A stretch of DNA of 32,618 nucleotides, from NCBI GenBank assembly GCA_008369845.1, contig MRSU01000274.1, forward strand, positions 1 through 32,618, written 5' to 3'. Source of the stretch: Trichomonas gallinae. Its lineage: Eukaryota. This document shows positions 12,588 to 32,618 of the stretch, in pieces. Each line of letters opens with the position of its first letter. Position 1 is the stretch's first letter. The notes under the pieces are model-generated. The model saw only the letters and a program-made list of their open reading frames with translations, was not told the DNA's origin and ran no database searches. A program made the position numbers and the translations under genes.

Positions 12588-12901
12588 TAGTATTTTGTAT
12601 TATTATGTATAGATTTTAAAATTTGTTTTGTTTATTTATCAAAATTAATAATTTTTCATTTGATTCAAGAACAGCTAAAAATATAAAATGTATGATATGT
12701 AAAATGAGTAAATTTACATCGGTGATGATTGTAAGTCGTTTATTAAAAAATTATAAAAATTTAATTCGAAAGTTGTTGATTGGTTATTAGGTGAAGTTGC
12801 TAGTTTGTTTGTTCCTAGGCTAAAATATGTAAATATTTGATAATTGAGAGATAAAAATTATCAAGCTTGATTTTTCTTTAAAACAGGACAATATTGATAA
12901 A

Positions 12902-13381
<480 letters not shown>

Positions 13382-14333
13382 TCAAATTGAATTTTTTCTT
13401 TCTGTATTTTTATCATTCATTTCATTCTACATATTTATGTTTGTCACTTTTAAACTTTACAAAATTTTAAAATTTACATGGCAAATTTTTGGATTAATAA
13501 ATTATATTAACTGCATATTCAAATTAAGCATATTAAAGCGGCGATTTCGATGTAAACGATAATCATTATACATGTCAAATATAATCGATGTTGCCAAATA
13601 TGTTTTCAATCTACATATTATTTGACAGAAAAATAGTTTACGTGTCAATAAAAAAAATCAATTTCCGATCCCCTTTATTCAATTGATGTAAGGAATGTTG
13701 GGAAACTATGAATTAACTCTATAGGAGTAAACTTATCATTTTGCAAAATTAGAGAAAATTTACAGTCTTTTTTTGAATGGTAATATTTTGTGAAATTATG
13801 ATTTTGCGATTTTTAACATTATTATCATTAGCACAATCTATTAACATGATGAATTTATTATATTAAAATTAATAAAAATTAAAATATAGGCTAAAAACTA
13901 TATTTTTAAAGTTTAAATTATTAATATATTTTAAAAATTAAATTCAATTAAAATTGATTTTACCGCGTGAAAAATTCTCTACATATGTCTATCAACTGGA
14001 ATTTTAAATATCAGGCGAAGATATAAAATTTATCCGTTATTTGAGGAATTTTACCGAAATCATGATATAAAGCAATTTCTCATGTAAAATAATAATAATT
14101 ATAGGCTCCTTTACACAAATATACACATTTCAGTCAGTTTTATCAGTTTTTCAATGAAAATCTGAATGTTTTCTGATTAAATTTTTCTCATTTGAACCGC
14201 AGAGTAAGTCCAGTAGGCGGTGTGCCTCAAGTATTTGCAGGCTTTAATAAACAAAATGTGCTCAATGGTGTTTACTTTTGTATAAACGATTATTTTTGTT
14301 GTAAACTATACAAGGGGAAATTTAAAAATCCTC

Positions 14334-15332
14334 ATGGGAGATCTGATTGGTCGCGCATGCCTCTTATCAGTCCCCCATGAGTTCTTCGGGTATAGGTATG
14401 AAAGCATAATCGGGCGAGGATCGTTTGCCATCGTTGTTTTAGTAACTCGCATGTCGGATGGACAGCAGTTTGCATGCAAAGTGATCTCGCAAGAATACCT
14501 AATAGAGAAGAAATTGGTTGAATCATTCAAAAGAGAAGTCGAAAATTTCGGAAAATTAAATCATCCAAATATTTTACAACTTGTTGATTTTCTTTCAGAC
14601 GAAAAACTCATTTACATGATCATGACACTTTGTCCTGCAGGTGATTTGCATGGATATATTGCAGAACACGGTGCTTTCCCTGAATATCAAGCGAAAGCAA
14701 TATTCAAACAAATCGTTTCAGCCGTTGATTATCTACACATGATGAACATTGCACACAGAGACTTGAAACCAGAGAACATTTTACTAGAAAAAGACATGAC
14801 AGTTAAATTAGCTGATTTTGGTTTTTCAAAAGAAACTACAGGAAATCAGCTGATGAAGACAAAATGTGGTTCGCCGATATATACAGCGCCAGAAATCATT
14901 ACACAGCCTGAATATGATGGAAAAATGGCTGATATGTGGTCTCTCGGTGTTATTTTATTCGTAATGCTGACAGGAAAAGTACCTTGGGAATCAGTATCCA
15001 ACGAGACACAGCTGTTTTTCCAAATTAGAACAGCGAGATACCATATTCCAGAAAATATTAATCAAATGGCTGCAAAATTAATCGGTGAACTAATGACCCC
15101 ACAGCCCGAGATGCGATGCACAGCAAAGGAAGTACTCACACATCCTTGGTTGCAGGAGAATTCAAGAAATTATTGTGCTTCACATGTTATTCAAAATAGA
15201 AGGACTCTGCTTCAAGAATCAGGCAGGCAGTCCGTTAGAGTCATCCAAAAGAGAATTGGAGCATCAATGAGAATGAAAGATCCGCCATTAACACGAAGAG
15301 TTCAAACACATGAGCCAGAACCTCTTCTATAA
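14334..15332 (+). CDS. CAMK-family Ser/Thr protein kinase
   Basis: GRGSFA, FACK, HRDLKPEN, DFG, CGSPIYTAPE, DMWSLG. Confidence 0.93.
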   Translation: MGDLIGRACLLSVPHEFFGYRYESIIGRGSFAIVVLVTRMSDGQQFACKVISQEYLIEKKLVESFKREVENFGKLNHPNILQLVDFLSDEKLIYMIMTLCPAGDLHGYIAEHGAFPEYQAKAIFKQIVSAVDYLHMMNIAHRDLKPENILLEKDMTVKLADFGFSKETTGNQLMKTKCGSPIYTAPEIITQPEYDGKMADMWSLGVILFVMLTGKVPWESVSNETQLFFQIRTARYHIPENINQMAAKLIGELMTPQPEMRCTAKEVLTHPWLQENSRNYCASHVIQNRRTLLQESGRQSVRVIQKRIGASMRMKDPPLTRRVQTHEPEPLL

Positions 15333-15629
15333 TTGTTTCTTTTTTGTATCTAATAAATGTTTGTTTTGTTTGTATAGTTAATCATAAAAATTTTATTCAT
15401 TGTTTTTCAAAACATCGGATTTAAAGAATTTGTCATACAAAAATGTACATAACATCAATCAGATAGCACGAATTTAACTCACTTTTAATATAAATCAGTT
15501 AATTTTTTCTTGAACAATTATATTTTCTAATATCTCATGATATTTTTAAAGTTTTTATTTGAATAAAGCTATGATAGATTAGTTTTTGTAGACGAAAATA
15601 CTTAAATTCGCTTCAAAAAATATTTTAGT

Positions 15630-16460
15630 CTATAATGTAATTTCTTTCGCCGCTTCATCGAAATCAGCATCAAGCTCCTCAATAGTACCAGAATATTGAC
15701 CCTTTGAAGATCTGATGAGTGTAATATCATTCGAAACTCTCTCTGCATCAGCCTGTTGGAAAGAGAGAGCGAGATTGTTGATAGTCATGTTAATATCGCT
15801 TGGGAACTGTTCTGTTGCATTCTTTAAATCATCTTCTACTTTTTCATATTCTTTGTTCAAAAAGTGGCATGTTGCAACCAAGCTATCAAGTAATGGAGAT
15901 GTTAAACCATCATACCTATCCTTCTGATCGAGAAGATTGTTGAGAGCATCAGTAATATCTTCTTGTGTTCTAATTGCAATAACCGCGCGAGCAATATCAG
16001 AAAGAGATTTCGTATTGATATTTTTGTACTCTTCTAATGCTAAGTCTGTTCTGTTAAGACCTAAAAGAGCCTGAATTCTAATCAATGATGCTTCCGGGTA
16101 TTTAGAATCAGCGATTGCGACAAGAGCTTCGCCTGGTTTGTTGCAGTTTAATAAGCAGATAGCGCAACAGACAGCATAATATGAGCTTGTCGCTTTAATT
16201 TGTGGATCCATATGATCTTCGTAGTATTTTTCAATTTCTTCATTTGAATTTAATTTCATTACATTTGCTAACAAGTTTATTCCTTTGCCCATTGGCGTAT
16301 CAAGTTTCTTCGTTTGATTGATTACGAAATCAATTTTGCCTAAAGCAAGGTTTGATCTGAATGCCATAAACTGGCCATCTTCAGGCATACCTGCTTTTGA
16401 GCCTTCTACAGATGCCTTTTGATAAAAGCCGAGATAGTAATAATCTTGGAGATCCTCCAT
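15630..16460 (-). CDS. Coatomer epsilon subunit (COPE)-like TPR protein
   Basis: N-terminal LQDYYYLGFYQKA, LLGLNRTDLA and C-terminal DADFDEAA match the epsilon-COP pattern; 276 aa. Confidence 0.8.
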   Translation of the reverse strand: MEDLQDYYYLGFYQKASVEGSKAGMPEDGQFMAFRSNLALGKIDFVINQTKKLDTPMGKGINLLANVMKLNSNEEIEKYYEDHMDPQIKATSSYYAVCCAICLLNCNKPGEALVAIADSKYPEASLIRIQALLGLNRTDLALEEYKNINTKSLSDIARAVIAIRTQEDITDALNNLLDQKDRYDGLTSPLLDSLVATCHFLNKEYEKVEDDLKNATEQFPSDINMTINNLALSFQQADAERVSNDITLIRSSKGQYSGTIEELDADFDEAAKEITL

Positions 16461-17197
16461 TTTTTTTATTTTTTTTGCAATTAAATTTTATTATAAAATA
16501 TAATAGAATATACAAAAATTTTCACTTTTTACCAATAAATGTTCGCTCAAATATGAAGATTTTTTTAATTATTTTTTTTGACAATTTTACATGTCAAATA
16601 GTCACTTTTTGATAAATTTTGTCAAAAATCATTATTTTCAAATCACTTATAATTTTGCAAAAATCTATGGAGTTATAGTATCCCTATGACATACATAGTT
16701 TACTATATAAGCTTGGTAAAGCTTATTTAACTTTTGATTTCTATCTTGATAGTAATTCAACATTGTAAAAATGGCTTAAATACAATCATATACAAATATA
16801 AATTATCGAATATAAACTATATGTAACTCAAAAAGTAATAATTATGAAGAAGCTCCAGACAATTCTTGTATTGCTATATTTTTAAACACTAATACTCTAT
16901 TTTATCAATATTTAGAAACTATATTCTATATATACTATTAAAATATTCTTACAATATGAATTAAATGCAGATTTTTTCAGTTGAAATATGATATGCTCAG
17001 AAATTTGTGTATAACAACAATATTGCTCTTCATTATTCAACAGTGTAAGTCAATATATAAATTCCGGTAGAATTTGGGAAAAATATGAAATTAATAAAAT
17101 CTCGAAATAAATTAAAAATCGCATTTGAGTGTCGCTAAACTGTAAATCAATAAACATATTTAATGCGGAAGTGAAGTAAAAAGAGAAATAATAAAAT

Positions 17198-17773
17198 TCA
17201 GCAGCAAGCACGCTCTTTTTGTTCTTCCAATGGAGATTTTGGAATGAAAACAGTTGTTTGCTGTTGGCATGCATCAGAAGCAAGACTTTTCGTAGCAACT
17301 GAATAGAATAATGTGTCAATTCCTGCTCCTGTGACGGCAGAAGTTTGCAAAAATTCCATTTCTGTTCCTTTATATTCTATTATTAAATTATCCGCATCAG
17401 TAAAAGAATCGAGATCGCATTTGTTTCCGACGACAATGATGTTTGGAATAGCAAAATCATCAACGACACTTTCTATCCAACTGTATACGTGATCATATGA
17501 TTCTTTGTTTGTTAAATCAAAAACTACAATCGCAACTGTTGCACCTCTTGCGTACATTGGCACCAAGCACTTAAATTCTTCTTGTCCAGCTGTATCCCAT
17601 ACGCTTAAGTTGACAGTTGTATCATTAAGTTCAACAGAAAAAGAAAATGAATTCGCACCGATTGTTGGGACAGTTTTTTCATTCTTTTTCGCATAAAAGT
17701 TGACTATTGATGTCTTTCCCACTTGTGTATCACCAACAAGAACAACTTTCACCGGCTGGGAGTCATTCAGCAT
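17198..17773 (-). CDS. Rab-family small GTPase
   Basis: GDTQVGKT, PTIG, WDTAGQE, GNKCD, TSA, and C-terminal CC prenylation motif. Confidence 0.93.
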   Translation of the reverse strand: MLNDSQPVKVVLVGDTQVGKTSIVNFYAKKNEKTVPTIGANSFSFSVELNDTTVNLSVWDTAGQEEFKCLVPMYARGATVAIVVFDLTNKESYDHVYSWIESVVDDFAIPNIIVVGNKCDLDSFTDADNLIIEYKGTEMEFLQTSAVTGAGIDTLFYSVATKSLASDACQQQTTVFIPKSPLEEQKERACC

Positions 17774-18019
17774 ATTTTTGATTCTTTTGACACTTTTTAT
17801 AACGCAATCGTCTGATTTTATTTTTCTTCTGACTTCGATTGAAAATTATCATAAGATTAAATCTGTCTTATATAAATGCGTTCTAACAGACCCGTGGATC
17901 ATTGCTATGTGAACTATTTCCTCAAATATTATAGAGAAATCATGGTGACAATATTTTTGACATGTATACTTTACAATGTCAAAAATATGACACATTTCAT
18001 CCGTTAGAAGTAAGAGAAT

Positions 18020-18987
18020 ATGGAGCTATTTCAGGCAGCAAAGGCGAATCAGGTTGATAAGATTACTGAGTTACTAGGAAATGGAGCAGATGTTAATACC
18101 AAGGGAATTTATTATATTTTTATTTTGTTTATTTTTATTTTCATAATATTCATTAATTTTTCATGACGAAACTCCTCTTCACTGGGCTGCAATTGCTGGA
18201 TCTGTTGATGCTGCAAAGTTACTTATTGAAAAAGGCGCTGATATTAATGCACAAACAGAAATTCGTTATTAACTTTTTACTATATTCGTCATAAAATCAA
18301 AGAGAAACACCATTACAACTCGCAGTACAAGAAAATAAAGTTGAAGTTGTTGAATTACTTATTGAAAATAAAGCTGATCCAAATATTAGAAATTATGATG
18401 GTGAAAATTGCATATTTACTGCAATAAGATGGGGCCATCCTGACCTACTCAAGCCACTTATCGATGCTGGCGCTGATCCAAACCAATACAACAAGAAATC
18501 ACAATCACCCTTACACGTTTGCGTAGAATACAAAGCAGAACCAGAGGCACGCACACTTATGCTATACAAGGCTGATCCAAGATATCAGGACTCCCTTGGA
18601 CGCACGCCTTTCCATACAGCAGTTTTAAATCGCGATTCAGAAATGTCTAAGTTATTCCTCGAATGCGGCGATGATCTCGCACTTATACGTGACCATAGTC
18701 TCAAAACAGTCTGGGATGGCGTCCCAGAAGAGTTCAAGAAAACAGTTATTCCAAAAGATATTCCTCAGCCAGAAAATAACGGAAATAATAAGGAAGCTCC
18801 ACCAGAGGATGAATACCAGTGGCTTAAGGACAAGAAATGCTTCATGTGTCGTAAAATGGACGCTGAGAAGATTGTTTTGCCTTGCCGCCACTGCGTTTTG
18901 TGCAACAACTGCACGCCAAAGTTCTTAGAAACGCATTTCCAATGCCCACAATGTAAGATGGCAATATTCGGATCTGCCAGAGCATAA
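18020..18987 (+). CDS. Ankyrin-repeat + C-terminal RING protein, split by two non-canonical inserts (~18110-18161 and ~18261-18297)
   Basis: Three frames join into MELFQAAKANQVDKITELLGNGADVNTKG // HDETPLHWAAIAGSVDAAKLLIEKGADINAQTE // QRETPLQLAVQENKVEVVELLIENKADPN...GRTPFHTA...CFMC..PCRHCVLC..C..CPQC. The ORF track captures only 18559-18987. Confidence 0.8.
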
Positions 18988-19568
18988 TGTAAAGATTTTT
19001 GGATTTATTATATTATTATAATTAACTAAGGAATTCTGGAATAATGTGAGTTTTGAGTTGATTCACAATGTTCATGAGTATTTGTTTTATTATTCGATGA
19101 TATCTGATTTATATAATACTAAAGATTTTAAGATATTATCAAGACTTCATACCTTATTATAATATACATAACAAAATTTCACATATGCCATTTCAACAGA
19201 ATATGAAAATAAAAAGAGCGGAATTTCCATTCTTTTGTTATATTTAACGATTAATGATGAATCATTTATATAAAACTATTATACATGCAATAACACAGGT
19301 TTGATCAATTAAAATATCAAATCAAATCTTGTGTTCATATTCGTAATTTTACTCCATAATATCATATTGGTCCCATCATATAAAGTTGGAGTTGTTTAAA
19401 AGGTTATTAGAGTGAATTCGAAATATTTTTCACAAAATAATAAGAATTTTAGAATTTTAATTGAATATTTGAGATAAATGACATATAGATAATCTACAGC
19501 AATTGCTATTTTTCATATTTAAAGAAAAAATAATCGTTGTGAACGTTAGTACCAAAAAATCGAAGAAA

Positions 19569-20189
19569 ATGTTTACCCAAATGTATTGTTCTGAGCAAAT
19601 TCAGATTCCACCTGATTTGCCGGCAATCCTCAAGGCCTACTGCAAGGCTGTGTACAAAGAAACGCAAAGTAGCCAAAATAAATCAGATCTCATCGCATTT
19701 TCAATCAAATACTTTAAAGAACAACTTGATAATCCGCCAAATTCAGCCGCTGGATATAGAGTTACACTATCAGATTTCCACGATTTGCAAGAAAACCTTA
19801 TGACTGTTAAGAAATTAAATCAAACTTTAAAGAGAGTCGATTATCAAGTAGCATGTGAGAAACTTGGTTTTTCACCAGAAATATTAGCAAATATTCTCCG
19901 CCTCGGTTTCCCTGATGAAGATGTTATTGATTTATATAAATTTATGGGAATTGGAGCTACCCTTTTATCTGCAAACTTTGAATCTTCTATAACAAATCTA
20001 TTTAAGATATTCGAAGACCAAAATTGCCAGGCTAAATTACCAACACAAGCTTTGATTGATTTTGTTACATTCCTGCAATCAAAGGATCCAAATATACCAT
20101 CTTCATTCCTTGAGAAACTAAAGGCTAGTGCCACAGAGGAAATGATTGATTTAACAATGTATAAACGTATTTTTGCTGCTGATGAGTAA
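19569..20189 (+). CDS. Ropporin-like / radial spoke RSP11-like RIIa D/D-domain protein
   Basis: MYCSEQIQIPPDLPAILKAYCKAV...DLIAFSIKYF; first ATG at 19569; stop overlaps TAAA. Confidence 0.85.
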   Translation: MFTQMYCSEQIQIPPDLPAILKAYCKAVYKETQSSQNKSDLIAFSIKYFKEQLDNPPNSAAGYRVTLSDFHDLQENLMTVKKLNQTLKRVDYQVACEKLGFSPEILANILRLGFPDEDVIDLYKFMGIGATLLSANFESSITNLFKIFEDQNCQAKLPTQALIDFVTFLQSKDPNIPSSFLEKLKASATEEMIDLTMYKRIFAADE

Positions 20190-20510
20190 AAACATTAAAG
20201 TTATTCGTATGCTTTTAATACCTCATTTTATCATGCAAATGGAGAATTCTAATCAATTCAATAATATTGAAAATTTTTAAAAATGTGATTAAATCACATT
20301 CTTCGTTCGTTATCTGTCTAATTTTTTGTCCTAGAGACAGACAACAAGCATAAATAGATAGATTTTCCGTTAAAACTATTGACTTTTTAATTTATTAACA
20401 AATATATAGGAGAAATCTTTTTGGTTCTCTATTTCTTAAATACATTTTCGCTAATTATGCTGTGGAATGCTAAAATAGATGGTTTTTTTTGGCTCAATTA
20501 ACAATCAATA

Positions 20511-21050
20511 TAATTTCTTATGAAAACAAAAGAAATCTTCCTGTAATAATGTAAGGCACATTGGAGAGATTTCGTAGTAATGAAGAAATTGATTATCGTT
20601 TGTTCAATATTGAGCAAATTTCGTGTGAATGTCTTAGGAATTCTTTCATGATATACAACACAAGGCAAAGCTTTAATGTATAGGTAGAATTTTGTATAAC
20701 AACTGAATGAAGAATTCACTGATATAAATTCGTGTGAAATCCAAGGAAATGTGATACTAATGTATAATTCAAGGCAGATCTTTTATAGTGAAGAAGAAAA
20801 GTATTGCATTGCTCAATAAAGATTTCAATATAAAAATTTCGTGTGATAGCTTTGGAAATCCTTTAATGATATACAATACAAAGAAAGAGATTTAAAATAA
20901 AAGCGGAATTTGGTTAAACTGTTCAAAGAAGCTTGAATCGAGATAATTTCGTGTGGAAGCCTTGGAAACCCATTAATGAAAAGCAACAAAAGGCAAAGCA
21001 TTAATATATAGGTAGTATGAATTAAACAGCTGAAAGATGAATGAAATGGT
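20511..21050. repeat. Degenerate ~109-bp tandem repeat (4 clear units + 1 decayed)
   Basis: TCGTGTG at 20621, 20730, 20839 and 20949; AAGGCA at 20553, 20662, 20771, (20880 variant) and 20990. Confidence 0.85.
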
Positions 21051-21054
21051 ATTA

Positions 21055-21088
21055 AAAGTGACACGTTAAGGAACATAGAAAAGTGACA
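21055..21088 (+). promoter_or_regulatory. Two AAAAGTGACAC (trichomonad motif 2) elements before the bromodomain gene
   Basis: Two exact copies within about 45 bp upstream of ATG 21100. Confidence 0.65.
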
Positions 21089-21099
21089 CCATCAGGGAA

Positions 21100-21570
21100 A
21101 TGTCGTTGAGCAAGTTCCAACTTACCAAGTGCTTACAGATTATCGAAAAACTTATTTCTTGGCAGATCTGCTCACCATTCGTCGAGCTTGTCGACCCAGA
21201 GCGTGACGGAGCCCCCGATTATTTAGATATTATCAAAAAACCAATGGCGTTACGTGAGGTTCAAAAGAAATTAAATGATGGAGCTTATAGTAATCTTGAT
21301 CAATTTAAGGATGATGTTGACTTAATTTGGTCAAACGCCCAACAATATAATGGTCAAGATACATTATTCACTCATATGGCACTCGAAGCCCGTCAGTGGT
21401 TTAACGAGAAAATGAAACGCTTCCCAAGCACCCCAGAAGAAGAGTGGACAAGAAAGATTCAGAGAACTACTCAGAAACTTTTAGGCGTTCTTTTACATCC
21501 ACCGCAAGAATTAGATCCAAATGGTAGCCTCACAGCTAGCCACGCCGATGAAGATAAATCTACAGCATAA
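21100..21570 (+). CDS. Bromodomain-containing protein
   Basis: PFVELVDP..GAPDYLDIIKKPMAL...DVDLIWSNAQQYN (conserved Asn); stop overlaps TAAA. Confidence 0.93.
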   Translation: MSLSKFQLTKCLQIIEKLISWQICSPFVELVDPERDGAPDYLDIIKKPMALREVQKKLNDGAYSNLDQFKDDVDLIWSNAQQYNGQDTLFTHMALEARQWFNEKMKRFPSTPEEEWTRKIQRTTQKLLGVLLHPPQELDPNGSLTASHADEDKSTA

Positions 21571-21929
21571 AAAGTTTATAATGTATTACTGTAAACGGAA
21601 TAAATTAATTTTCCTCCGATAACAACATAGCTGTTATACTGTGACTACATACTCAAACTAATTGGCCTATTCTCTTGGATTTTAATTTATATTTTATATT
21701 TACGTCAATGTTTTAGAATAAGTCTAAAATAACAATATTTACTTGTGAGTAAGCAAAAATATTTAGACAATTTGCTATCAATCACAAAATTTATTTTTTA
21801 TAATTTTTAATGCTGGTAATTAGCAAATTTATAGGTTATTATTGAAGATAAATTTATGAAAGTATTATAATGTATAAATATGAGGTAGAAATTACAATAA
21901 TAAAACACTTTTACAAATAATTATCGAAA

Positions 21930-22373
21930 TTACTGATTAAGCAATATATGAACAAATTTTTTGTAGTCAACCAAGTTATTCCATGGCTTTGTTTGTGTAA
22001 CGAGCTCGTCGATTTGAGCATCAGTAAATGGCCTCTTGATTGATGTTAAAACATTCTTGATATCCTTTGTTGGTATATAACCTGTTTCTTTTTCATCAAA
22101 TACATGGAATGCATCGATTAATTCTTGCTCAACATTACTATTTCTTGAGTGGCGATAAGAAATGTATAAGAAAGCGCTAAAAGAAATTGGTCTTCGTTGA
22201 ATATCTTCATAAATATCGGTCATTTCTGAAATACTAGGATTATATCCACAAGCCCTTAAAGCTCTTTCGATCAAATTAGGTTCAATGTATCCATCACCAT
22301 CTGTGTCGAAAGTGTCAAATGCTTCGTGGAGTGTTTGTAATTGTCTTGATGTGATAATCTGTGCTAAACTCAT
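21930..22373 (-). CDS. Calmodulin-like EF-hand protein
   Basis: 147 aa; EAFDTFDTDGDGYI, ELIDAFHVFDEKETGYI, VDYKKFV; the EF loops are partly degenerate. Confidence 0.88.
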   Translation of the reverse strand: MSLAQIITSRQLQTLHEAFDTFDTDGDGYIEPNLIERALRACGYNPSISEMTDIYEDIQRRPISFSAFLYISYRHSRNSNVEQELIDAFHVFDEKETGYIPTKDIKNVLTSIKRPFTDAQIDELVTQTKPWNNLVDYKKFVHILLNQ

Positions 22374-22773
22374 TCTGCCGTTTGTGTGACGATAAAACGG
22401 AAGAGTTTAGTTTACATGACAAATATTATATTAAAAACCTGTTTTGACACGTAAACTGTCAAAAATATATACCATTTTCATTTTATATAAAATAATGAGA
22501 TATAACTCTGAATACTGCAGTTTCTACTTTTTACTAATCAGCAGAATTGATTCATGAGATTAAAATCATATATATCATTTGAATATTTTGAATTATAATC
22601 AATTATCAAAAATGGTCTGACAAGTGCTAGAAAACTCTTAATTTGATCTAATACGATACATTTAGTTGGAAAAATTTTAATAATATACTTGAATATTTTA
22701 ATAAATAAAATTTTGCAATAAGTATTGTAAAAAATAAAAGGATTGAGATTTTCAATAGCAAATACAAACAATT

Positions 22774-23760
22774 TTACTTATAAACTGCTTCCCAAAAAAT
22801 ATCATCATCTTCATCTGGTTTGACAATTACTGGTGTGAAAATGCTCCAATCACTTGGGCACCATGTGGCAACGGAATTCCATGTTTGCCACAGCGCTGTG
22901 GCATCTGCTTCAGATGCGAGTTGAAAAGCATAAGATTGCTTTGTTCCAAGGACATCAACGACATTTTTCTCAGCTGGATACATTGAGGATTCAATGATCC
23001 ATGTATTTAACAACTTTGAAGAAATAATTAAATTATCTTCACGGAATAAAACAACACGATCTTCAAATATGAACAAATTTGCTGGGATATTTGATGGGGT
23101 AGTGACATGGAATCCTGACAAGCACCAAATCAATGGAGAATTCTTTGGAATGAAAACTTTTTGTTTATCACTGATTTTATATAACTTCGCAAGCTTTTCC
23201 TTGAATTGTTGAGCAACTCTAACATGTTTTGTTTCAAATTCAATCTTTTTAAGCTCAGATAAGCATTTTTGGTAAATTGAATAATATCCATCATCGATAG
23301 GAATAACTTCTAACACTTGTTTCCAAAAGACGGACCAAGATGCAACATATGTATATGGGAACATGAACCAATAGTTCAATGTTGAATTTTTTGAAGCAAG
23401 AACGTCTAAAAATGGCTTGTGCGACTTTGATTTTGAGATTTTTACGAGATCTGCAGTAGAAGGGAGATTTTCACTAAAGTTTTTGAATAATGTTTTAAGT
23501 TCTTCAAATGTTGAAAATTGGTCTACGATTGTATTAAGTGTTGGTGCATGTGCTTTAAAGAATTTTGTTTCGAAACTGATAATTTTCTTAACAAGATCAA
23601 CAAGAGTGGCAAATGAATTTGCGCAAACATTTCCTTCTTTTGTAAGTTCTTGGTAAAATGGTGTAAGAATCTCTAGGATTTGCTGAGCCATATCACATGT
23701 ACCAGCTGAAACATCAATTTGTAAATTAACTAAGTCTGTAATTTTTGAAACGGTATTCAT
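22774..23760 (-). CDS. Hypothetical protein, divergent DH-PH (RhoGEF-like) architecture
   Basis: LNYWFMFPYTYVASWSVFWKQVLEVIPIDDGYY resembles the DH CR3 region; LFIFEDRVVL...YAFQLASEADATALWQTW is PH-like. Confidence 0.6.
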   Translation of the reverse strand: MNTVSKITDLVNLQIDVSAGTCDMAQQILEILTPFYQELTKEGNVCANSFATLVDLVKKIISFETKFFKAHAPTLNTIVDQFSTFEELKTLFKNFSENLPSTADLVKISKSKSHKPFLDVLASKNSTLNYWFMFPYTYVASWSVFWKQVLEVIPIDDGYYSIYQKCLSELKKIEFETKHVRVAQQFKEKLAKLYKISDKQKVFIPKNSPLIWCLSGFHVTTPSNIPANLFIFEDRVVLFREDNLIISSKLLNTWIIESSMYPAEKNVVDVLGTKQSYAFQLASEADATALWQTWNSVATWCPSDWSIFTPVIVKPDEDDDIFWEAVYK

Positions 23761-23960
23761 ATATTGTCACTTTTATATTTTAAATAAGGTTAATATTCTC
23801 AAATCAATAATTTCTAGCGTAAACTATTATAACTGAGCTAACATAGAATGTAAACACGACAGAATATTCTAAAGCCCATCGGACAGTCTCAAGAAATGAA
23901 GCTCAAATCAAAGCTGTATTATTAAAATTGTTTTTATGATCATTTTTATTTGAGGAGGAA

Positions 23961-24070
23961 TTTGACAACTTCATGATGGCTCTATGCTTAATATACAACA
24001 TCTTTGATATAATCTCCTGCGTTGACAACTTTCATGATATATGATAATGAGTTTGACAACTTAATCAAAA
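23961..24070. repeat. ~30-bp period array of TTGACAACTT(T)CATGAT
   Basis: ACAAC cores at 23965, 23995, 24025 and 24056. Confidence 0.65.
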
Positions 24071-24358
24071 TGATATTCATCAAATTGAGATTAACTAACT
24101 AAATCTACAAGAATATGGTCGATAATAACGCTTTTTTATCGATGACAAAGTAGATATTTATATTTAAATACCAAATCCGGATTGATATCTTTTAGTTAAA
24201 AAATGATTTTTGACATGTAAATTATTTCTTTACATGGCATAATTACAAATTTTGATATTTCCCGCATAGTTATATTGCAAAAAGTGAATCTATTAGTATG
24301 CTTAATCCAAATCAGTAATTAAAAAATCTCAACAATTTAAAAAAAAACTCCAAAAAAT

Positions 24359-26611
24359 ATGGGCGACTTTGTGAAACAGCTCTCACAGCTGTCACAAAGC
24401 ATGGCGACGACAATGACCCTCAACAATCCGCCGTTCATTCATTGCTCAAAAATTAATGCTTTTAGTCAGCTTCTAAAAAAATTAGCCCCATTATTAGGAA
24501 CTTCAACGAAAAAAATTAACTGGGGCTTAAGTTCGGCAATGAAATCCGTAAACGACATACTTCACGAATTCAAACAGTTGCATTCTCAGTGTTTATACGA
24601 AAATTGTATTCATTATATATTAATAACGCCAATAAAAACCGCATACAACCAATTTACTGAAATGCTGAAGGAACTGAAGAAAGCTTTCGATCAATTAGGA
24701 GTCGCATCAGCTTTGCCGCTGATAGATCAAGCATTTGCAGATCTAGATCCGCAGGAAACTGTCGATTTAAAGAGAATTGCCGAAATATTCGTACAAATAC
24801 GCGAGAAAAACAGTAAATCATCGAGAAAAGATGTCCAGAAACAATTATTAGAAAGGACGACATCTTTAGAAAACCTCGGAATTCAATTTAACTACCAACC
24901 AGTTGATATAGTCGTTATACCAGAGCTGCCGAACTCGTTAAATCTCGTTTTGCAGCACGAAGACTTGGAATTTGGAAAACAAATCGGCGAAGGCATCAGC
25001 GGAAGGGTTTTGAAAGGCAGAATCAAGAGCACTGGAATGGTTGTTGCCATTAAAATCTTACACCTTCGTCAATTATCAGGTGCTGATATGGAAAGATTCA
25101 GAAATGAAATTTTTGCAATGTCAACGCTCAATCATCCATCATTGTTACCATTTTGTGGTTACACACAAGAAGCCCCTTACTGCCTTGCGACGAAATTCAT
25201 GGAGAATGGTTCTTTGTTCAGTATTTTGTCAACAAACCCTTCTTTTCTTTCTCCGACAGACAGAACATTGATAGCATACGATGTTGCGTGCGGTATGGAG
25301 TTTCTGCACTCCAGAGGTGTAATACACAGAGATCTCAAATCATTAAATATTTTATTAGACGAAAACAAAAGAGGAAAGATCTCAGACTTCGGATTCGTCA
25401 GGATGAAGTCTAGTGTTCCAATGACAGGCTTAGTTGGCACTTCTCATTGGATGGCTCCGGAAATATTGCTGAGTAGTCCAAATTACGACGAAAAAATCGA
25501 TATTTATAGCTACGGAATTGTTTTATGGGAGCTATTGACATCAGAGAAGCCATATGATAATGAAGATCCCAATACTTTGCCTCTAAAAGTTATTGAACAT
25601 AATTTAAGACCGAAAATACCAGATGGAACACCACAAAAGATCAGATCATTGATAGAGAAATGCTGGGCGGCGACTCCAGAGCAAAGACCTTCTTTCCACG
25701 ACATTATTAATTATTTCACAGATCCAGAATATCATTTTCCAGGCTCTGAGCGCTTTGTTTTGCTCAGAGAGACAGGTGCTGTCGTTTCTCACGCAAGAAC
25801 TGGCAGTGAAAACGAGTTTTTGAAGAGACCAATTCCAAGTATCAGGAGAAACATGAATATGAAGAGTGTATGCGTGTCCAAATCAGAGATAGGCACAACA
25901 CTCGTCAAGAGGATTGAAGATGCAATGAATCAAGGCCATATTGAAGCTTTTAGGAATTCAATTGCGACATTTCGATCAATGCTTGACATGAATAACATCT
26001 CATGGCCTGGAATTTCGCAGCAGTTCGTTAACCTTATACAACATGCACCACATAACTTCAAAGTCCAACTTGTTCAGCTTTTCTTCGAAATTATTTCTAA
26101 TACGAACCAATCTACGTTTTCAACGCCGAATTTGAGCTCCAAACAGCCAGAAACAGATAATATGGCAAGTTTGGTTATAATTCGCTTGTTAAATGATGAA
26201 GATCCGAATATTATCGAAATGTCTTTAACAATCTTATCTTTAACAGGCTCATCATGCATGAATACAGAAGATGTCATCAAAACACTCCTAGGATTCGTTA
26301 AATACGGCGATCAGAAGTTCAGAGTTAAAGCTTTGCACGCTCTTCTTGTTGGATGCACGACACAGTCACTTAAACCTCATCTTAACTCACTGCTGATGTT
26401 TGGAATGAGGAAATTACCACTGATGAGGCTTAGAACACTTCTTACAAAAACATTAGATATTCTCAATTCATCAGAAGCCTCTGAAATCGACAGCAAAGTT
26501 TTAGTTAAGCTTCAAGCAATACAACAAAACGCTCCACCTGAACTCAAAGACTTGTCCAACGAATGTATTAATACATACAATGATAAGAAAGATAATGCGC
26601 CACAATTTTAA
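24359..26611 (+). CDS. TKL-family protein kinase with N-terminal helical-bundle and C-terminal ARM-like regions
   Basis: GEGISG, VAIK, HRDLKSLN, DFG, GTSHWMAPE, CWAATPEQRPSF. Confidence 0.92.
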   Translation: MGDFVKQLSQLSQSMATTMTLNNPPFIHCSKINAFSQLLKKLAPLLGTSTKKINWGLSSAMKSVNDILHEFKQLHSQCLYENCIHYILITPIKTAYNQFTEMLKELKKAFDQLGVASALPLIDQAFADLDPQETVDLKRIAEIFVQIREKNSKSSRKDVQKQLLERTTSLENLGIQFNYQPVDIVVIPELPNSLNLVLQHEDLEFGKQIGEGISGRVLKGRIKSTGMVVAIKILHLRQLSGADMERFRNEIFAMSTLNHPSLLPFCGYTQEAPYCLATKFMENGSLFSILSTNPSFLSPTDRTLIAYDVACGMEFLHSRGVIHRDLKSLNILLDENKRGKISDFGFVRMKSSVPMTGLVGTSHWMAPEILLSSPNYDEKIDIYSYGIVLWELLTSEKPYDNEDPNTLPLKVIEHNLRPKIPDGTPQKIRSLIEKCWAATPEQRPSFHDIINYFTDPEYHFPGSERFVLLRETGAVVSHARTGSENEFLKRPIPSIRRNMNMKSVCVSKSEIGTTLVKRIEDAMNQGHIEAFRNSIATFRSMLDMNNISWPGISQQFVNLIQHAPHNFKVQLVQLFFEIISNTNQSTFSTPNLSSKQPETDNMASLVIIRLLNDEDPNIIEMSLTILSLTGSSCMNTEDVIKTLLGFVKYGDQKFRVKALHALLVGCTTQSLKPHLNSLLMFGMRKLPLMRLRTLLTKTLDILNSSEASEIDSKVLVKLQAIQQNAPPELKDLSNECINTYNDKKDNAPQF

Positions 26612-27398
26612 CACCCATCCAATTATATCAGTTCATACTATATTTATCATTGAAAATAACTTGATTTCGAAAATTAATTTATTGAAAATCAAGAGTTTCG
26701 AAGCAATCAATTGATGTATAATCTTTTTGACATGTTTGAAAAGATTTCTCTTTGATAATACGTCAAAAATCCAATAATTTTTAATATTATTTTGTTTGAT
26801 ATATTTATATACTTTTATTTACTTAGTAATAGTTTAAAATGTTTGTCTTTATACATAATATTCCATTATTTTTAGCAAACAATAAATTTTCTTTAACTAT
26901 TGATTAAATTTTATGTTTAAAAACATTATTTTTCTATATAAATATCAATAATAATTATAAATTTTCTATTTATTCATATGCCAGTATCTTCCATTTAAAA
27001 ATATAAAAATAAATCAATTCATCAAATATTTTATCCAAAATACTTGTTTTAGTACATGAGTACGCATAAATAAAAACGAATTATCTACTTATTAATATTT
27101 GACTGTGTTTTTATATAATATATAAAGATAATTAAAAGAATATAAAAATTGCATGTTTTATTGTATGATTACGCATAAAATAAATTTTAAAATGATATAA
27201 TAAGAATAAAACCAGAATAATATAACTATATCTCGCTAGAAAAAGATTTGGAAAATTAACGAAATACGATGTAAGAACAAGTTTTTCGCGACAAATATTT
27301 GCAAAAATAGTTGTTTATTCCAAAAATGCAATAAAAACTGAGACTTCGAAAACTTTAAAAAAATTAAAAACGTTCGGCGAAACGTGACAATTATAATA

Positions 27399-28007
27399 AT
27401 GAGCCAAGAAAATACTGAGCTCTTTCCAACAAGGAAGTATGCCAAGCCAGATGTTAAGCTTGTCCTCCTCGGCGACTCTGCCGTAGGAAAGACAAAACTC
27501 GTCGAACGCTTCCTCCTCAAAGATTATAATCCAATTACAAACTCTACATTCGCCCTCACACTCTATGAACACACAGAAAATCTCAGCGGAAAGGACGTAC
27601 AAGTCACTATTTGGGATACAGCCGGCCAGGGCTGCTTCGACGAACTTCACCCATCTTTCTTCTACGGCGCTGACGCAGCCATTCTCGTTTTCGACGCAAC
27701 AAGAAAGGAAACATACCAGCACTTAGAGTCATGGCACGCTCAGTTGATCAGCCAGCGTGGACAAATCCCAATCATCGTTGTTGTTAACAAGCAGGACCTC
27801 AACCCAACTATTACTCGTACACAGTTTAAGTGGGTAAAGGAGCATAACTATCCAATTTACTATACATCCGCTGCTAAGGGAACAAACGTCTTCCGCGTCT
27901 TCCAGGAAGCTATTAAACTCGGTTGGACACATAAGAACAACCCAGATGATGTTATGGGCGTTATTGTTGGTCTCCTTGCTAAGCAAGCTGAAGAATATAC
28001 GGAATAA
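27399..28007 (+). CDS. RABL2: Rab-like protein 2 (cilia/IFT-associated GTPase)
   Basis: LGDSAVGKTKLVERFL, STFALTLYEH, TSAAKGTNV and no C-terminal Cys are RABL2 signatures; first ATG at 27399; stop overlaps TAAA. Confidence 0.9.
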   Translation: MSQENTELFPTRKYAKPDVKLVLLGDSAVGKTKLVERFLLKDYNPITNSTFALTLYEHTENLSGKDVQVTIWDTAGQGCFDELHPSFFYGADAAILVFDATRKETYQHLESWHAQLISQRGQIPIIVVVNKQDLNPTITRTQFKWVKEHNYPIYYTSAAKGTNVFRVFQEAIKLGWTHKNNPDDVMGVIVGLLAKQAEEYTE

Positions 28008-28385
28008 AGAATTTTTTTTAGCAAACTTTTCTATAAAAATACGTTTACTTAACTACTTTACAGATCATCTTCTTGAAAACATTTGATTAAATCGAAAATA
28101 AAATACTTCAAATTTTTATTTTTAAGCGTCTTTTGAGAAATCGAGCTTAGTAACCTGATACACATGAGCTAATATGCATAAAGCTAAATTTTTGATTAAT
28201 GATCAAAAATATTTTCGAATCTTCAATTTTAGACTTAAATCAAAGTAAATTAGATGCCTTTTTCATATATCTTACCATTATCATATTCATTTTGTGTCTA
28301 TTTGCATTTGATAATAAAAAATATTTGATAAAATTTGGAGAAGAGAAATTTACAAACATGGCAAGTAACAAGAAGCGTAAAAAGC

Positions 28386-28910
28386 TTATTCGTTGTATTG
28401 ATTTAAGAAATTCATTGTTGAGTCAACGAATGTTGATAATTGATTAACTGTTTGAGATACATTTGAAGCCTTGACTTGTTTCTCTAAGGAGCTAATTTGT
28501 TCATCTAACTGATCAAATAACTGATTAACTTCATCAGGAATTTCGATAGGTTGATCCATATCAATGAAAGATAATTCAGGAAGCAGGCCATCTAAGTACT
28601 GATCTATCTTATTACGAATTGACTCTATAAATGCATTTTTGCGACCTTTAATTTGTTCTTGAAGGCGATAAGCTTGTTGTTGCATTTTTTCTATCTGTCC
28701 TTTGATTTGCTGGCCTTTAACCTCTTCAGCTGGTGTCTGAATAATTTTAACTCCTGTTCTTAATGTATTTTCGAATTGATTAACGACTTTATTTATATCA
28801 AATTCTGTTTCAGATGGTTCGCCAACAGCGTCTTTAATCGAATTCCTGAATATTTCTACTATGCTCATTAAATCGTCATTGGATATCTGTGGTAATGCTG
28901 TGGGCTCCAT
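28386..28910 (-). CDS. Hypothetical coiled-coil protein
   Basis: 174-aa Q/E-rich ORF; Inr TCATT immediately upstream (28911-28915, -). Confidence 0.75.
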   Translation of the reverse strand: MEPTALPQISNDDLMSIVEIFRNSIKDAVGEPSETEFDINKVVNQFENTLRTGVKIIQTPAEEVKGQQIKGQIEKMQQQAYRLQEQIKGRKNAFIESIRNKIDQYLDGLLPELSFIDMDQPIEIPDEVNQLFDQLDEQISSLEKQVKASNVSQTVNQLSTFVDSTMNFLNQYNE

Positions 28911-29431
28911 AATGACCGTTTAGAATTATTTTTGATTGTTTACATGACAAAAAATATTTTTCTTATTTACATGACATATTAAATTTTGAATATTTACAAA
29001 ATAAAAATCATATGTACAATTTGTAGCGTGTTTGCAGATCAAATACTTGCTGGTACAATATGCTAGCAAATATATATATAGAAATGATTTCTTATGCATT
29101 ATTAATTTGACAAAAAACTAAATTTTACAATATGAGTAGTAAATGGGAGTGCTAGGGCCTCAATCATATGAGTAAAGCTTCAGATTATTGTTGGGGATGA
29201 AATTTAGGCTATCAGTGCGCAGGGATTTTAATTTTCATTAGTTCCAAATACCTCTATTAACAATATAATTTATTAGAATAGCAATATCTATTCTCTTTCA
29301 TTTGATGCGTTTATTGAAACTTCTCTGCAGTAAACCTTGTTTATATTACATTACTTATATAGTAGACGTGTGGAAGAAAGATAAAAAATTAAATGAGTTA
29401 CAAAACAAAAAGAAAGTTAAAATTTATAACA

Positions 29432-31888
29432 TTATTTGGTCTTGTTGTCTGCGTCTGGACCGTTTGTGCTAACAGCGACACTGTGGACGACATCCCACAG
29501 AACCTGCATCTTCGACGACAAACTCTCTGAGAAAGTTGCCTGAAGAGAGTTAATCGCTTCGATTTCAGTGCAGTTAAGCAACAATGAGTTTTCAACTTGA
29601 GAAAGTCTCCTCATTGGGTTCTGCTGGAAGCACTCAAGTGGAGCTGTGAACATCAGCTCAATGAGAACCAATATAAGTCTAGCGCGTTTCCTCAATGAGT
29701 TGAAAGCCGGACATGCCCAGTCGCAGATCTTCTGAAGGCCGTTTTCTGGGTCAATGGTGTCAACCATTTCCCTGGATAGTTTAAGCGGTGGAGTGAACGG
29801 TTTTGTCACATCACCGAGAATGAAGCCATAATCGATATGCAATAAGTGTCCATCCCTTGTCACCAAAATATTGTTGTCGTGCCTGTCGCCGATTTTCAGC
29901 ACATATGTCATGACTGAATAAGCAGCGAGAGATTCAGTGAACAACTCGATTTTTGGTGGTAGTGGTTTGTTGTCAGCTGACAAGTATTTCCTGATAGATT
30001 TCTCGTCGTTCGCGATATTCAAGATTGCCTTAGAGTTGTCGATGAATTCACAGCAGCCGAACGTTGGCGAGAAAGCAAGAGTCTTGTAGGCAGTGATGTT
30101 TAACTGCATCGAAGCGCGCTTGAATATATTGTCCATGACAGAAAACAGCTGCAAAATCAACTGATCTTGTCTCATGTCGTCGCCGATCTTGAAGATGACC
30201 CTGTATGAGCCACCGTCAGCCTTCTTGAAGCAAATACAAGCTGGACGAAGTTTCGACTGGAAAACTTTGACATCTTCAGTATCTACACCAACGACAACGA
30301 TTTCTGGATCTAGTGGTAAACGTACTGGATCGAAATTCTGCAGCGATGAATGCACTGGGTCGTTCGTCAATAACTCAATGATTTTGGCGCGTTTCGCTTG
30401 TGTAGAATTAACATTTGTGTTTGCTTCTGTCAAAAAATTACACAAACGTTGAACTAAACTGATTTGATCATCGATTTGGCGCTTTACATCTGGATCAACT
30501 GATTCGTAAAGGTTTTTAACGAGAATTCCGATCGCTTCGTCTGTTTCCCTTTCGATTTGAGCAATCCAGTAGAAATTTGATGCGAAAATGATGTCGCTCT
30601 TTGCGTGTTCAATGAGAATATCAGCGAGACCAGCTGTATATGGAGCTTTTACAGCTTGAATCAATTGTGGCAAATATAATAATAATTCTTCACGAGGAAC
30701 AGACTTGATACATCTAACAGCATAAGCTCTGACAACTTCTATGTTGTATCTTGACGTAAAGAACTCGAGAGCGTATTCAACATCAATCGGTTCGCGTGTT
30801 TTGAGCGCTTCAACGATTTCCCTTGATTCCTCTGGTGAATCCCAGTTAACTGATCTGAATAATGCTGGCATAAGGCCCGGATCAGATAAGCAATGATAAT
30901 AATTATTGTATAAGTGTGTTTTCTGGATTGTAAGGAGTTCTGTGAGTGGTGGAAGTGCTTTAATTTTATTAAGAGTCTCTGTGATATTGGATTCTTTAAG
31001 CAATGACGATTTCGCGGGTCCTTGTGAATGAGCCAGGTCGTGATAAAGCCTCTGACATGGATTCAACGCTGAATTATTGTTACTTGGAGACAAAACAAGG
31101 TTCTCATGCACGATAATGGTTGATGGTTGAGCTGATTGAGGAGGCAGAATTATTATTCTTGCAAATTCGGATTGATTCGATAAAGTTGGTGGAGTTATCG
31201 GACTTAGCAGTGAATTGAAGAAGTTTTCAGCATCATCTGGATGCAAACATTCAGTTACAGAACGAATTTGATCATCGATAAATTCGTAAGTCTTTTCTTT
31301 TGTAGTATAAAGGCGACGAACGTGTTTCTGTAAGATATTTTTGGTTTCTTTTCCATCAAAAGTTAGAGTAAATGGGCCAGTTCGCAAATGACGATTTTTC
31401 TTTGTAAAAAGACGAACTTTTGCTTCACCAATTAACATTGGCTTTGCTTGGAATAAGCGTGCGTGGAATTTTAAGTATGCAATCGAATCTGGAGGGAGTT
31501 CGGAATATAAAATCGGAATTTGAATTGTTTGATCCCAGGTAAATGTATGCTGCTCTCTATTTATATTATGAAGAATCGAAATATTAGGGAATGTAGGATG
31601 AGTTCGCTGATATTGGTTTGATAGAAGTGTAACGGGACAAGTTAAAGGTCTGTCGCTTGAATATATTACGCACTCGACCTCGCATTTGAACGGAAGAGAT
31701 GAATCTGAGTCCCATTCTTCAATTAAATAGTCTGGAATTCTAATGCCGAAAAATTGGTAGATATCGAACGAAATATCATTTGCAACATCTACTGTTAGAG
31801 ATTTTATATCGAATTTCAGGTTTTCGGGAAACATTGATGATTTCTCCAACTTCCTGTTATTAGAAACGCGATTGGAGGCCTCCGTCAT
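29432..31888 (-). CDS. VPS34: Class III phosphatidylinositol 3-kinase (Vps34-like)
   Basis: C2-like N-terminus, helical domain (VRAYAV, LLLYLPQLIQA), FKIGDDMRQDQLILQ, IGDRHDNNIL, HIDYGFILGDVTKPFTPPLKL. Confidence 0.9.
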   Translation of the reverse strand: MTEASNRVSNNRKLEKSSMFPENLKFDIKSLTVDVANDISFDIYQFFGIRIPDYLIEEWDSDSSLPFKCEVECVIYSSDRPLTCPVTLLSNQYQRTHPTFPNISILHNINREQHTFTWDQTIQIPILYSELPPDSIAYLKFHARLFQAKPMLIGEAKVRLFTKKNRHLRTGPFTLTFDGKETKNILQKHVRRLYTTKEKTYEFIDDQIRSVTECLHPDDAENFFNSLLSPITPPTLSNQSEFARIIILPPQSAQPSTIIVHENLVLSPSNNNSALNPCQRLYHDLAHSQGPAKSSLLKESNITETLNKIKALPPLTELLTIQKTHLYNNYYHCLSDPGLMPALFRSVNWDSPEESREIVEALKTREPIDVEYALEFFTSRYNIEVVRAYAVRCIKSVPREELLLYLPQLIQAVKAPYTAGLADILIEHAKSDIIFASNFYWIAQIERETDEAIGILVKNLYESVDPDVKRQIDDQISLVQRLCNFLTEANTNVNSTQAKRAKIIELLTNDPVHSSLQNFDPVRLPLDPEIVVVGVDTEDVKVFQSKLRPACICFKKADGGSYRVIFKIGDDMRQDQLILQLFSVMDNIFKRASMQLNITAYKTLAFSPTFGCCEFIDNSKAILNIANDEKSIRKYLSADNKPLPPKIELFTESLAAYSVMTYVLKIGDRHDNNILVTRDGHLLHIDYGFILGDVTKPFTPPLKLSREMVDTIDPENGLQKICDWACPAFNSLRKRARLILVLIELMFTAPLECFQQNPMRRLSQVENSLLLNCTEIEAINSLQATFSESLSSKMQVLWDVVHSVAVSTNGPDADNKTK

Positions 31889-32585
31889 TTTTTTGTATTT
31901 TTATTTTAATTAAAATTTATTTATAAAATATACTCATAGTTACATTCACTTTTTGTCGTATAACTATATAAAAAATTTGTAGTTTTTAATTTGATTTTTT
32001 TGATTAAATGATTTCCATCGATTCTCTTATTAAAAAGTAATTTTTACATACTCTATATCTCTAATTTTTCTTCTTTAATAGAAAACCATGAGATTAAAAG
32101 AAAATTCAAATTAATAGGCAAAAACTTCTCATGAAATCGGTTTTTCTTAACATGGAAAAACTCTATCAGTTTAGTTTAATATAAAGATTAAAACATATGA
32201 TGTAGCACATAAAAATAAAGTTTTTAAAATAAACATCATGATATTTGATATGCTACTAAATTGTATTAACAACAGAATCCTTTTAAATTAATGCTGGAGA
32301 TACAATAAGGTTCACACACTAGAAAATCTCAAAAAGTTATTAGAGATTCACAGAGTTCGAAAAACTACATTTTTAAAGCAAATGTCAGAAATTTGCCAAA
32401 ATGACCATTTTAATACCACCATTACTGTCACGAAAGGCAGTACGCTTTTTTTAAAAAAATTAAATAACGTACAAAATGGTTTTAAAAATGCAAATTGTGA
32501 TATATTTATCCATAGACTGTTTTATCACCGGCCCGGGATGCTTAATTGAAGCATTCCATCAACGCACTTTTCTGATTTTAGTGTC

Positions 32586-32612
32586 AAAAAAAAAAAAAAA
32601 AAAAAAAAAAAA
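32586..32612 (+). repeat. Poly(A) tract (27 nt)
   Basis: Homopolymer run near the window end. Confidence 0.9.
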
Positions 32613-32618
32613 CTGTTT

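Follow-up and report, generated by a model that had tools for sequence, protein, structure and literature searches.

Results

The window (the whole 32,618-nt stretch of Trichomonas gallinae DNA analyzed here) is compact eukaryotic DNA with a GC content of ~33%, and carries on its plus strand a gene whose reading frame is split into three, at positions 18020-18106, 18159-18260 and 18301-18984. Based on its ankyrin repeats, its C3HC4 RING finger and its similarity to TVAG_383780 of T. vaginalis, to which positions 18301-18984 show 77% identity, the product is predicted to be an ankyrin-RING (C3HC4) ubiquitin ligase. Exon 1 (18020..18106) provides the ATG and the first ankyrin repeat in 29 codons, the last two encoding K-G; its Pfam ankyrin matches are weak (E 0.014-0.081), and its N-terminus is similar to proteins P0011 and P0012. 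The second ankyrin repeat is encoded by exon 2 (18165..18260; Pfam Ank, E 7.7e-11), which would start at 18159 if the preceding insert were read as a single piece. Exon 3 (18301..18987, with the stop codon at 18985-18987) carries more ankyrin repeats and the C3HC4 RING finger (Ank_2, E 2e-22; zf-C3HC4_3, E 1e-8), and is free of stops and frameshifts in both the window gene and T. vaginalis. Once joined, the reading frame is 293 aa long.

In the surroundings of this gene, the divergent promoter that it shares with a small GTPase gene holds a perfect 13-bp inverted repeat (17951-17988 of the window), whose core, TGTCAAAA, has 17 occurrences in the window where 5 would be expected (0 of 100 shuffles), frequently just 5' of genes, and is likely a promoter element. 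Elsewhere, a segment with no long ORF (20618-20956) contains four copies of A[AT]TTCGTGTG at a spacing of 109-110 nt, a degenerate tandem repeat, and on the minus strand, between two genes, positions 23896-23980 hold a decayed ankyrin-like fragment with stops, to which many contigs of run X1 (described below) give partial matches.

Exons 1 and 2 are separated by insert 1 (18107..18164, plus strand), of which a net 52 nt is absent from the X1 contig. A first-pass annotation of this DNA had described the insert as very AT-rich, with no usable GT-AG pair, and both observations hold: positions 18107-18161 comprise 38 T, 14 A, 2 C and 1 G, and the sole GT, at 18127, finds its next AG at 18217, deep inside exon 2. 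Such AT-richness is exceptional, as none of 20,803 stretches of 52 nt drawn from 20 coding stretches of the window had three or fewer G+C. The direct repeat and the matched codons that had been noted are likewise present (AATTT at 18106 and 18155, ATT at 18107 and 18156). ATT, in fact, occurs nine times in these 55 nt, and among 50,000 shuffles an in-frame ATT landing codon was found in 44% and the AATTT repeat in 7%; the matched ATT codons are within chance level. As also annotated, the unprocessed frame encodes a 48-aa peptide with a hydrophobic tail, for which a homologue search and a look-up in the protein collection returned nothing. Insert 1 itself is known from the window alone. An AT-AC reading of 18107-18167 would be three residues short and is at odds with X1.

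Evidence on what becomes of the inserts comes from one 882-nt contig of depth 16 from a single run, X1, whose RNA status is a guess. Run X1, the only run to cover the stretch (share 0.27), represents another strain, its contigs differing by 2-5% from the window and the ankyrin-RING contig being ~97% identical to it. For six of the six genes listed, X1 contigs extend no more than 34 nt beyond the coding limits, and depth is zero in two intergenic bins of 30; X1 behaves like mRNA, RNA being our guess. Letters 3-93 of the ankyrin-RING contig correspond to 18015-18105, letters 95-196 to 18159-18260, and letters 203-882 to 18301-18980, with TACTAT kept between 18260 and 18301. At site 1, a single letter is found between 18105 and 18159, the contig being shorter here by a net 52 nt instead of 49, with the joint placed from the limits of the alignment pieces in a low-complexity stretch that the read tool masks as repeat. 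The 52-nt excision that the first-pass annotation had offered as one option therefore agrees with the contig, in which exon 1 leads to exon 2 with 52 nt fewer, and the resulting spacing matches that of all five full-length orthologues; within this net 52 nt, several fits of the internal boundaries are possible. X1 is probably the mRNA of a gene still carrying the inserts. Over positions 12700-32618, with about a dozen genes, the sole clean joint listed for X1 is the one in the ankyrin-RING gene, so that the inserts appear gene-specific here, in line with an intron-poor genome. Runs X2 and X4 gave no match on the ankyrin-RING gene, and run X3 gave a diverged orthologue.

At site 2, exons 2 and 3 are separated by a 40-nt stretch, of which X1 keeps TACTAT (letters 18-23), the remainder being two 17-nt pieces that both begin with ATTCGT. 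Piece 2a (18261..18277, plus strand) begins with ATTCGTT and ends with TTT; piece 2b (18284..18300, plus strand) begins with ATTCGTC and ends with CAA; both are absent from the X1 contig. Between them lies a 6-nt microexon (18278..18283, plus strand; Tyr-Tyr), the exact letters of which are kept by X1 and the place of which is conserved in the T. vaginalis record, in a protein-level comparison. TACTAT arises inside a 40-nt stretch of the same make-up in 6.6% of shuffles. Two other readings of the site were tried and rejected: an intron from the GT at 18265 to the AG at 18304, which would be in frame but two residues short, and a 20-nt AT-AC reading of piece 2a, which would be one residue short; both are at odds with X1.

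Orthologous proteins provided an independent measure of the spacing. At site 1, x-L-F-N-D-E-T is found in five of five full-length orthologues (three clusters), and at site 2, Q-T-x-Y-F-[RK]-E in eight of eight; the full-length orthologues measure 289-291 aa, compared to the 293 predicted here. The loose ends of the run X3 orthologue, read by eye, are K-V-F-N-N-E-T and A-Y-F-K-E-T. By this alignment, the predicted product has the right residue count at both X1 junctions, and a 49-nt hop would leave one residue too many. In other organisms, full-length ORFs are found on contigs of 14-15 kb (P0075, P0077). P0002 and P0010, which are 96-97% identical to the window, begin at the first start codon past the in-insert stop, as expected of an insert-bearing allele, although truncated contigs could be another explanation.

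Another finding concerns the T. vaginalis record. The 246-aa model of TVAG_383780 (available under an EAX and a KAI accession, with a Logan contig giving the same reading) begins within exon 2 in the wrong frame and continues across an insert of its own, and it aligns gaplessly with the off-frame reading of the window, with the same 40-nt spacing. Identity is seen at four residues, precisely those covering the kept 6 nt and the start of the next piece, compared to one in nine among the insert codons outside them; shuffling produces such a run of four in 0.8% of cases. When back-translated, the record is compatible with Y-Y or Y-F in the kept piece, with RTTY opening the first piece, and with CAY closing the last. 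The same 17+6+17 layout can thus be proposed for site 2 of T. vaginalis, resting on a protein record from which the DNA was deduced, and a 34-nt GT-AG intron without branch motif may be an alternative reading of that record. In a Tritrichomonas cluster, proteins P0016, P0080-P0084, P0017 and P0079 are truncated at or past the third ankyrin hairpin, and six proteins (four distinct starts) of this cluster, among whose members is T. musculus, begin with M-E-x7-ENTVF and have variable T-rich codons. These starts suggest an off-frame piece of constant length (22 nt) one repeat further on, at the third ankyrin hairpin, where the window gene is intact; a 25-nt GT-GAG intron may be the alternative. 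Back-translations of the T. vaginalis and Tritrichomonas proteins keep RTTY or compatible letters only. Protein searches returned no full-length Trichomonas-like protein and no intact T. vaginalis paralogue; in the 50%-cluster search, long ankyrin proteins dominate, and P0003 is the sole orthologue recognized among the 150 matches listed. Scans for relatives' DNA gave two distant loci in metagenomes (32-34% identity), one bacterial ankyrin locus in prokaryotes, and none in viral DNA.

ATTYRTY is common to the three starts that X1 fixes. The gene has one further match to it, at 18148, in a position exactly 17 nt 5' of the Asp codon and directly 3' of an Asn codon; with X1-defined starts only, a start at such a position was obtained in 39 and 50 of 20,000 shuffles. 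Allowing G at +1 adds 18127 and nothing else. The resulting RTTYRTY has five matches in the 976 nt from 18015 to 18990, all at piece starts and none in exons, although the motif was partly chosen after the data were seen and has 184 matches across the window. Of the nine RTTYRTY pairs in the window at a distance of 19-24 nt, six are in or beside intact ORFs. With these starts, insert 1 would consist of three predicted pieces on the plus strand. Piece 1a (18107..18123; 17 nt, ATTTATT to TAT) has its 5' end set by the X1 alignment limits and a deduced 3' end, and a variant of 18 nt plus a 2-nt exon fits equally. Piece 1b (18127..18144; 18 nt) begins with GTTTAT at the only G of the insert and ends with CAT, and piece 1c (18148..18164; 17 nt) would run from ATTCATT to CAT. 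Two putative one-codon microexons lie between them, Phe (18124..18126) and Asn (18145..18147), each of these residues being found in five of five full-length orthologues. Pieces of 17+18+17 nt around the Phe and Asn codons remove 52 nt and yield F-N-D, a three-piece solution found in 7 and 32 of 20,000 shuffles with a motif that is partly post hoc. With pieces of at least 12 nt, 85 decompositions of insert 1 agree with the sequence, and in 20 of these the pieces start with RTT. The simplest reading is a single piece (18107-18158). F-N-D and F-H-D are one letter apart and X1 is compatible with both, the deciding letter being among two unlisted differences near the piece ends. If removal occurs at the RNA level, the reading with two one-codon exons between three pieces, and hence F-N-D, is somewhat more probable; the alternative, one 52-nt piece, would give F-H-D.

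Judged by these boundaries, the piece starts resemble the GTWYWD of type B introns with A in place of G, one start being a true GT. The ends are TAT, CAT, CAT, TTT and CAA, so that four of five read Y-A-H, which would be like YAG without its G. None of the five pieces ends in AG, and neither TCTAAC nor ACTAAC is found in them. Folding of the inserts revealed no structure and no hairpin (z +0.7 to +1.8), the insert region folding worse than its own shuffles, and Rfam gave no match in the inserts and one chance-level match outside them. Unstructured pieces that belong to no RNA family argue against cutting of the IRE1 or tRNA type and against bypass of the gene 60 type.

Piece 2b is, at 13 of 14 positions, the reverse complement of the joined site-1 junction (18103-18171), which is also its best duplex on the whole modelled mRNA (-14.5 kcal/mol). 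This energy was reached anywhere by 0 and 2 of 300 shuffles; pairing of such strength was found for 4 of 8,736 intergenic 17-mers and for 10-23 of 2,000 shuffles with the first eight letters fixed. Under the F-N model, piece 2a also pairs best in this register (-11.2, with G.U pairs), and with the first eight letters fixed its pairing was equalled by 272 of 2,000 shuffles, which is not significant. Nothing pairs with site 2, and pieces 2a and 2b are therefore without a guide of their own. The 2b pairing may be a working splint or guide, or the relic of an inverted templated insertion.

Discussion

Our results suggest that the inserts of this gene would be transcribed and then cut from the RNA as introns of 17-18 nt, by a U2-type spliceosome that accepts A where the first G would stand and chooses the 3' end through a near-fixed length measurement instead of AG. 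Removal at both sites would restore the 293-aa ankyrin-RING ORF with the spacing of its orthologues. As unspliced RNA gives only the 48-aa peptide, removal would gate expression of the predicted E3 ligase. We hold removal at the RNA level to be fairly likely and, given such removal, would assign the spliceosome about two thirds of the weight as the cutter; for the complete proposal, in which a U2-type spliceosome uses the 5' site and a near-fixed length, the chances appear balanced. The U2-type spliceosome is preferred because the starts resemble the type B 5' site, A at +1 and a last letter other than G are known for both spliceosomes (PMC1557818), and spliceosomal introns of 15 and 18 nt exist. 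Against it are the lack of a branch motif, the one TTT end (2a), exons of 3 nt, difficult to reconcile with a reduced spliceosome, and a length of 17 nt that falls below the 23-nt minimum of catalogued T. vaginalis introns.

The same RNA-level evidence would apply equally to removal by an endonuclease-ligase route, possibly with an antisense splint provided by piece 2b (and, more weakly, 2a) across the site-1 junction. The absence of AG and of a branch motif, the sub-minimal length, and the preference of 2b for the joined site-1 junction all favor such a route, which we nevertheless consider doubtful, in that the pairing was spotted post hoc, that of 2a is not significant, 2a and 2b lack a guide of their own, the back-translation of 2a from T. 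vaginalis does not, by eye, obviously keep the pairing, neither a hairpin of the IRE1 or tRNA type nor an Rfam match was found, and the pairing itself is possibly a relic of an inverted templated insertion. A more specific form, in which a spliceosome-free route of trichomonads cuts 17-22-nt non-GT-AG pieces at codon boundaries and joins one-codon exons with 2b as a splint, is quite improbable; if true, some of the frameshift-split genes of T. vaginalis would be intact, processed genes. These genes, which number 923 out of 1,465 split genes (bioRxiv 10.64898/2026.08.31.748405), also speak for lesions at the DNA level, whereby the window allele would be broken or encode truncated products and the X1 allele would be intronless. 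X1, indeed, is another strain and is known from presumed RNA, the full-length ORFs of P0075 and P0077 show that the gene can be intronless, and the inverted match of 2b would suit a templated insertion. However, T. vaginalis, an outgroup at 77% identity, apparently has the same layout at site 2, including conservation of the kept piece, so that X1 would need the exact loss of several pieces. Furthermore, exon 3 is intact in both species with no intact T. vaginalis paralogue found, and P0002 and P0010 start as an insert-bearing allele would have them start, even though truncated contigs could also explain this. We regard such lesions as unlikely.

The first-pass annotation had raised translational bypassing of the T4 gene 60 type, with take-off at the ATT at 18107 and landing at the ATT at 18156. 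The two codons do lie 49 nt apart in the right frames, but a matching ATT is found in 44% of shuffles, the product would be one residue longer than in five of five orthologues, no stop adjoins the take-off codon, and there is no hairpin. Moreover, the piece is missing from the RNA-like contig, with 52 nt gone instead of 49, and site 2 keeps an internal piece, which is impossible by one hop. Bypassing is already contradicted if X1 is the mRNA of an insert-bearing gene, and we find it scarcely credible. A target-site duplication, also raised by that annotation, does not fit either, as the AATTT copies are 49 nt apart compared to 52 nt lost and such a repeat occurs in 7% of shuffles; nor does transcription starting inside the insert, as one X1 contig, which starts at least 5 nt 5' of the ATG (18020), spans the two inserts. 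An artefact, such as misassembly of low-complexity sequence in the window or a skip during reverse transcription or assembly in X1, would be in keeping with the low complexity of insert 1, masked as repeat by the read tool, and with a Giardia ankyrin gene whose listed non-canonical junctions are rarely spliced in-frame skips of 93 and 273 nt (PMC10711314), which may represent repeat-mapping noise. The skips seen here, however, restore the orthologue spacing with single-residue precision at each of two sites, differ from whole-repeat lengths, have no stable structure, leave a microexon behind, and recur at site 2 in the T. vaginalis records, which makes an artefact very improbable.

Trichomonas is considered poor in introns, of which there are about 50-80, all strictly GT-AG and at least 23 nt long (PMC12316389, PMC13548475). 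The T. vaginalis catalogue of PMC12316389 comprises 63 introns, all GT-AG, of 23-196 nt and with a fused branch motif, and drops junctions without known motifs; that of PMC13548475 is motif-guided and, in its available parts, says nothing of non-canonical ends. As both recent catalogues are motif-guided, junctions like these would be filtered out, and tiny non-GT-AG introns around microexons would generally escape motif-based catalogues. Our literature search found no report of parabasalid introns that are non-GT-AG or shorter than 23 nt, with PMID 40865709, on T. vaginalis intron plasticity, known by title; the available parts of PMC6679479, PMC13735942, PMC12589397, PMC11978803 and PMC13149111 held no intron of this kind. 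No paper on TVAG_383780 was found, and the gene is not in the supplementary files of PMC12316389 (n=3) and PMC13548475 (n=5). If confirmed, a parasite would be seen to remove 17-nt A-started pieces around exons of 3-6 nt, which would lower the intron size limit in trichomonads, break the rule of terminal dinucleotides, point to a reduced spliceosome (or another enzyme) able to work by length, and correct the truncated 246-aa model of TVAG_383780. A question posed by the 2007 genome, whether genes split by frameshifts represent pseudogenes or are recoded or processed, also becomes testable, given that long-read RNA data exist.

Compared to known systems, the pieces are closest in several traits to type B Trichomonas introns, which measure 23-28 nt and read GTWYWD...TCTAACH1-2AACAG (PMC6260720, PMC12316389): they are short, T-rich, unstructured, near-uniform in length, and have a degenerate 5' motif, matched by the GTTTAT of 1b. 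That start, at 18127, is however the only one of five to match GTWYWD, the other four beginning with A and two of these also differing at +5; the type B 3' motif has no match in the window, and lengths are 17 + 17 nt at site 2 and 17/18/17 or 52 nt at site 1. Catalogued introns, moreover, number at most two per gene, as opposed to up to five here, around exons of 3-6 nt. In regard to type A introns (GYAYGY start, RCTAACACAYAG end, 50-196 nt), the 3' motif is nowhere in the window, and insert 1 has no AG. Published examples exist of U2-type AT-AC introns and of U12-type introns with AT-AA and AT-AT ends (PMC1557818). The feature shares with the former (type II) a U2-like 5' site with A at its first position, ATTYRTY at four of five starts being a loose match, and with both a last letter other than G (CAT, TAT, CAA). 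It differs from U2-type AT-AC introns in that none of the five pieces has a 3' AC and all are far shorter, and from U12-type introns in lacking RTATCC/ATATCC, its pieces starting with ATTT, GTTT or ATTC; U12 genes are apparently absent in T. vaginalis (PMC12316389).

T4 gene 60 resembles the feature in its ~50-nt gap and matched codons. In that gene, a stop codon directly follows the take-off codon, inside a stem-loop. Here, the stop is 19 codons on, the z-score is +1.6 with no hairpin, and the product would have the wrong length; the coding gap of gene 60 is kept in its mRNA, whereas here it is gone from the X1 contig, which is from another strain. Introns cut by IRE1 (HAC1/XBP1) and by the tRNA endonuclease have stem-loops or a bulge-helix-bulge at both junctions. 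The feature is similarly short, frameshifting and non-GT-AG, but has no flanking stem-loops or bulge-helix-bulge. From a transposon footprint it differs in the spacing of the direct repeat, 49 nt compared to 52 nt lost. The tiny ciliate and nucleomorph introns of Stentor and Bigelowiella, lastly, are GT-AG. The pieces described here are like them in length, at the lower limit of splicing, and differ from them in their ends; the introns concerned measure 15 nt in Stentor and 18 nt in Bigelowiella (as cited in PMC12316389). By the tests run, the feature is outside both trichomonad intron types and the bypass, U12 and IRE1 classes; it most likely behaves as a spliceosomal intron of extremely small size whose ends are not G.
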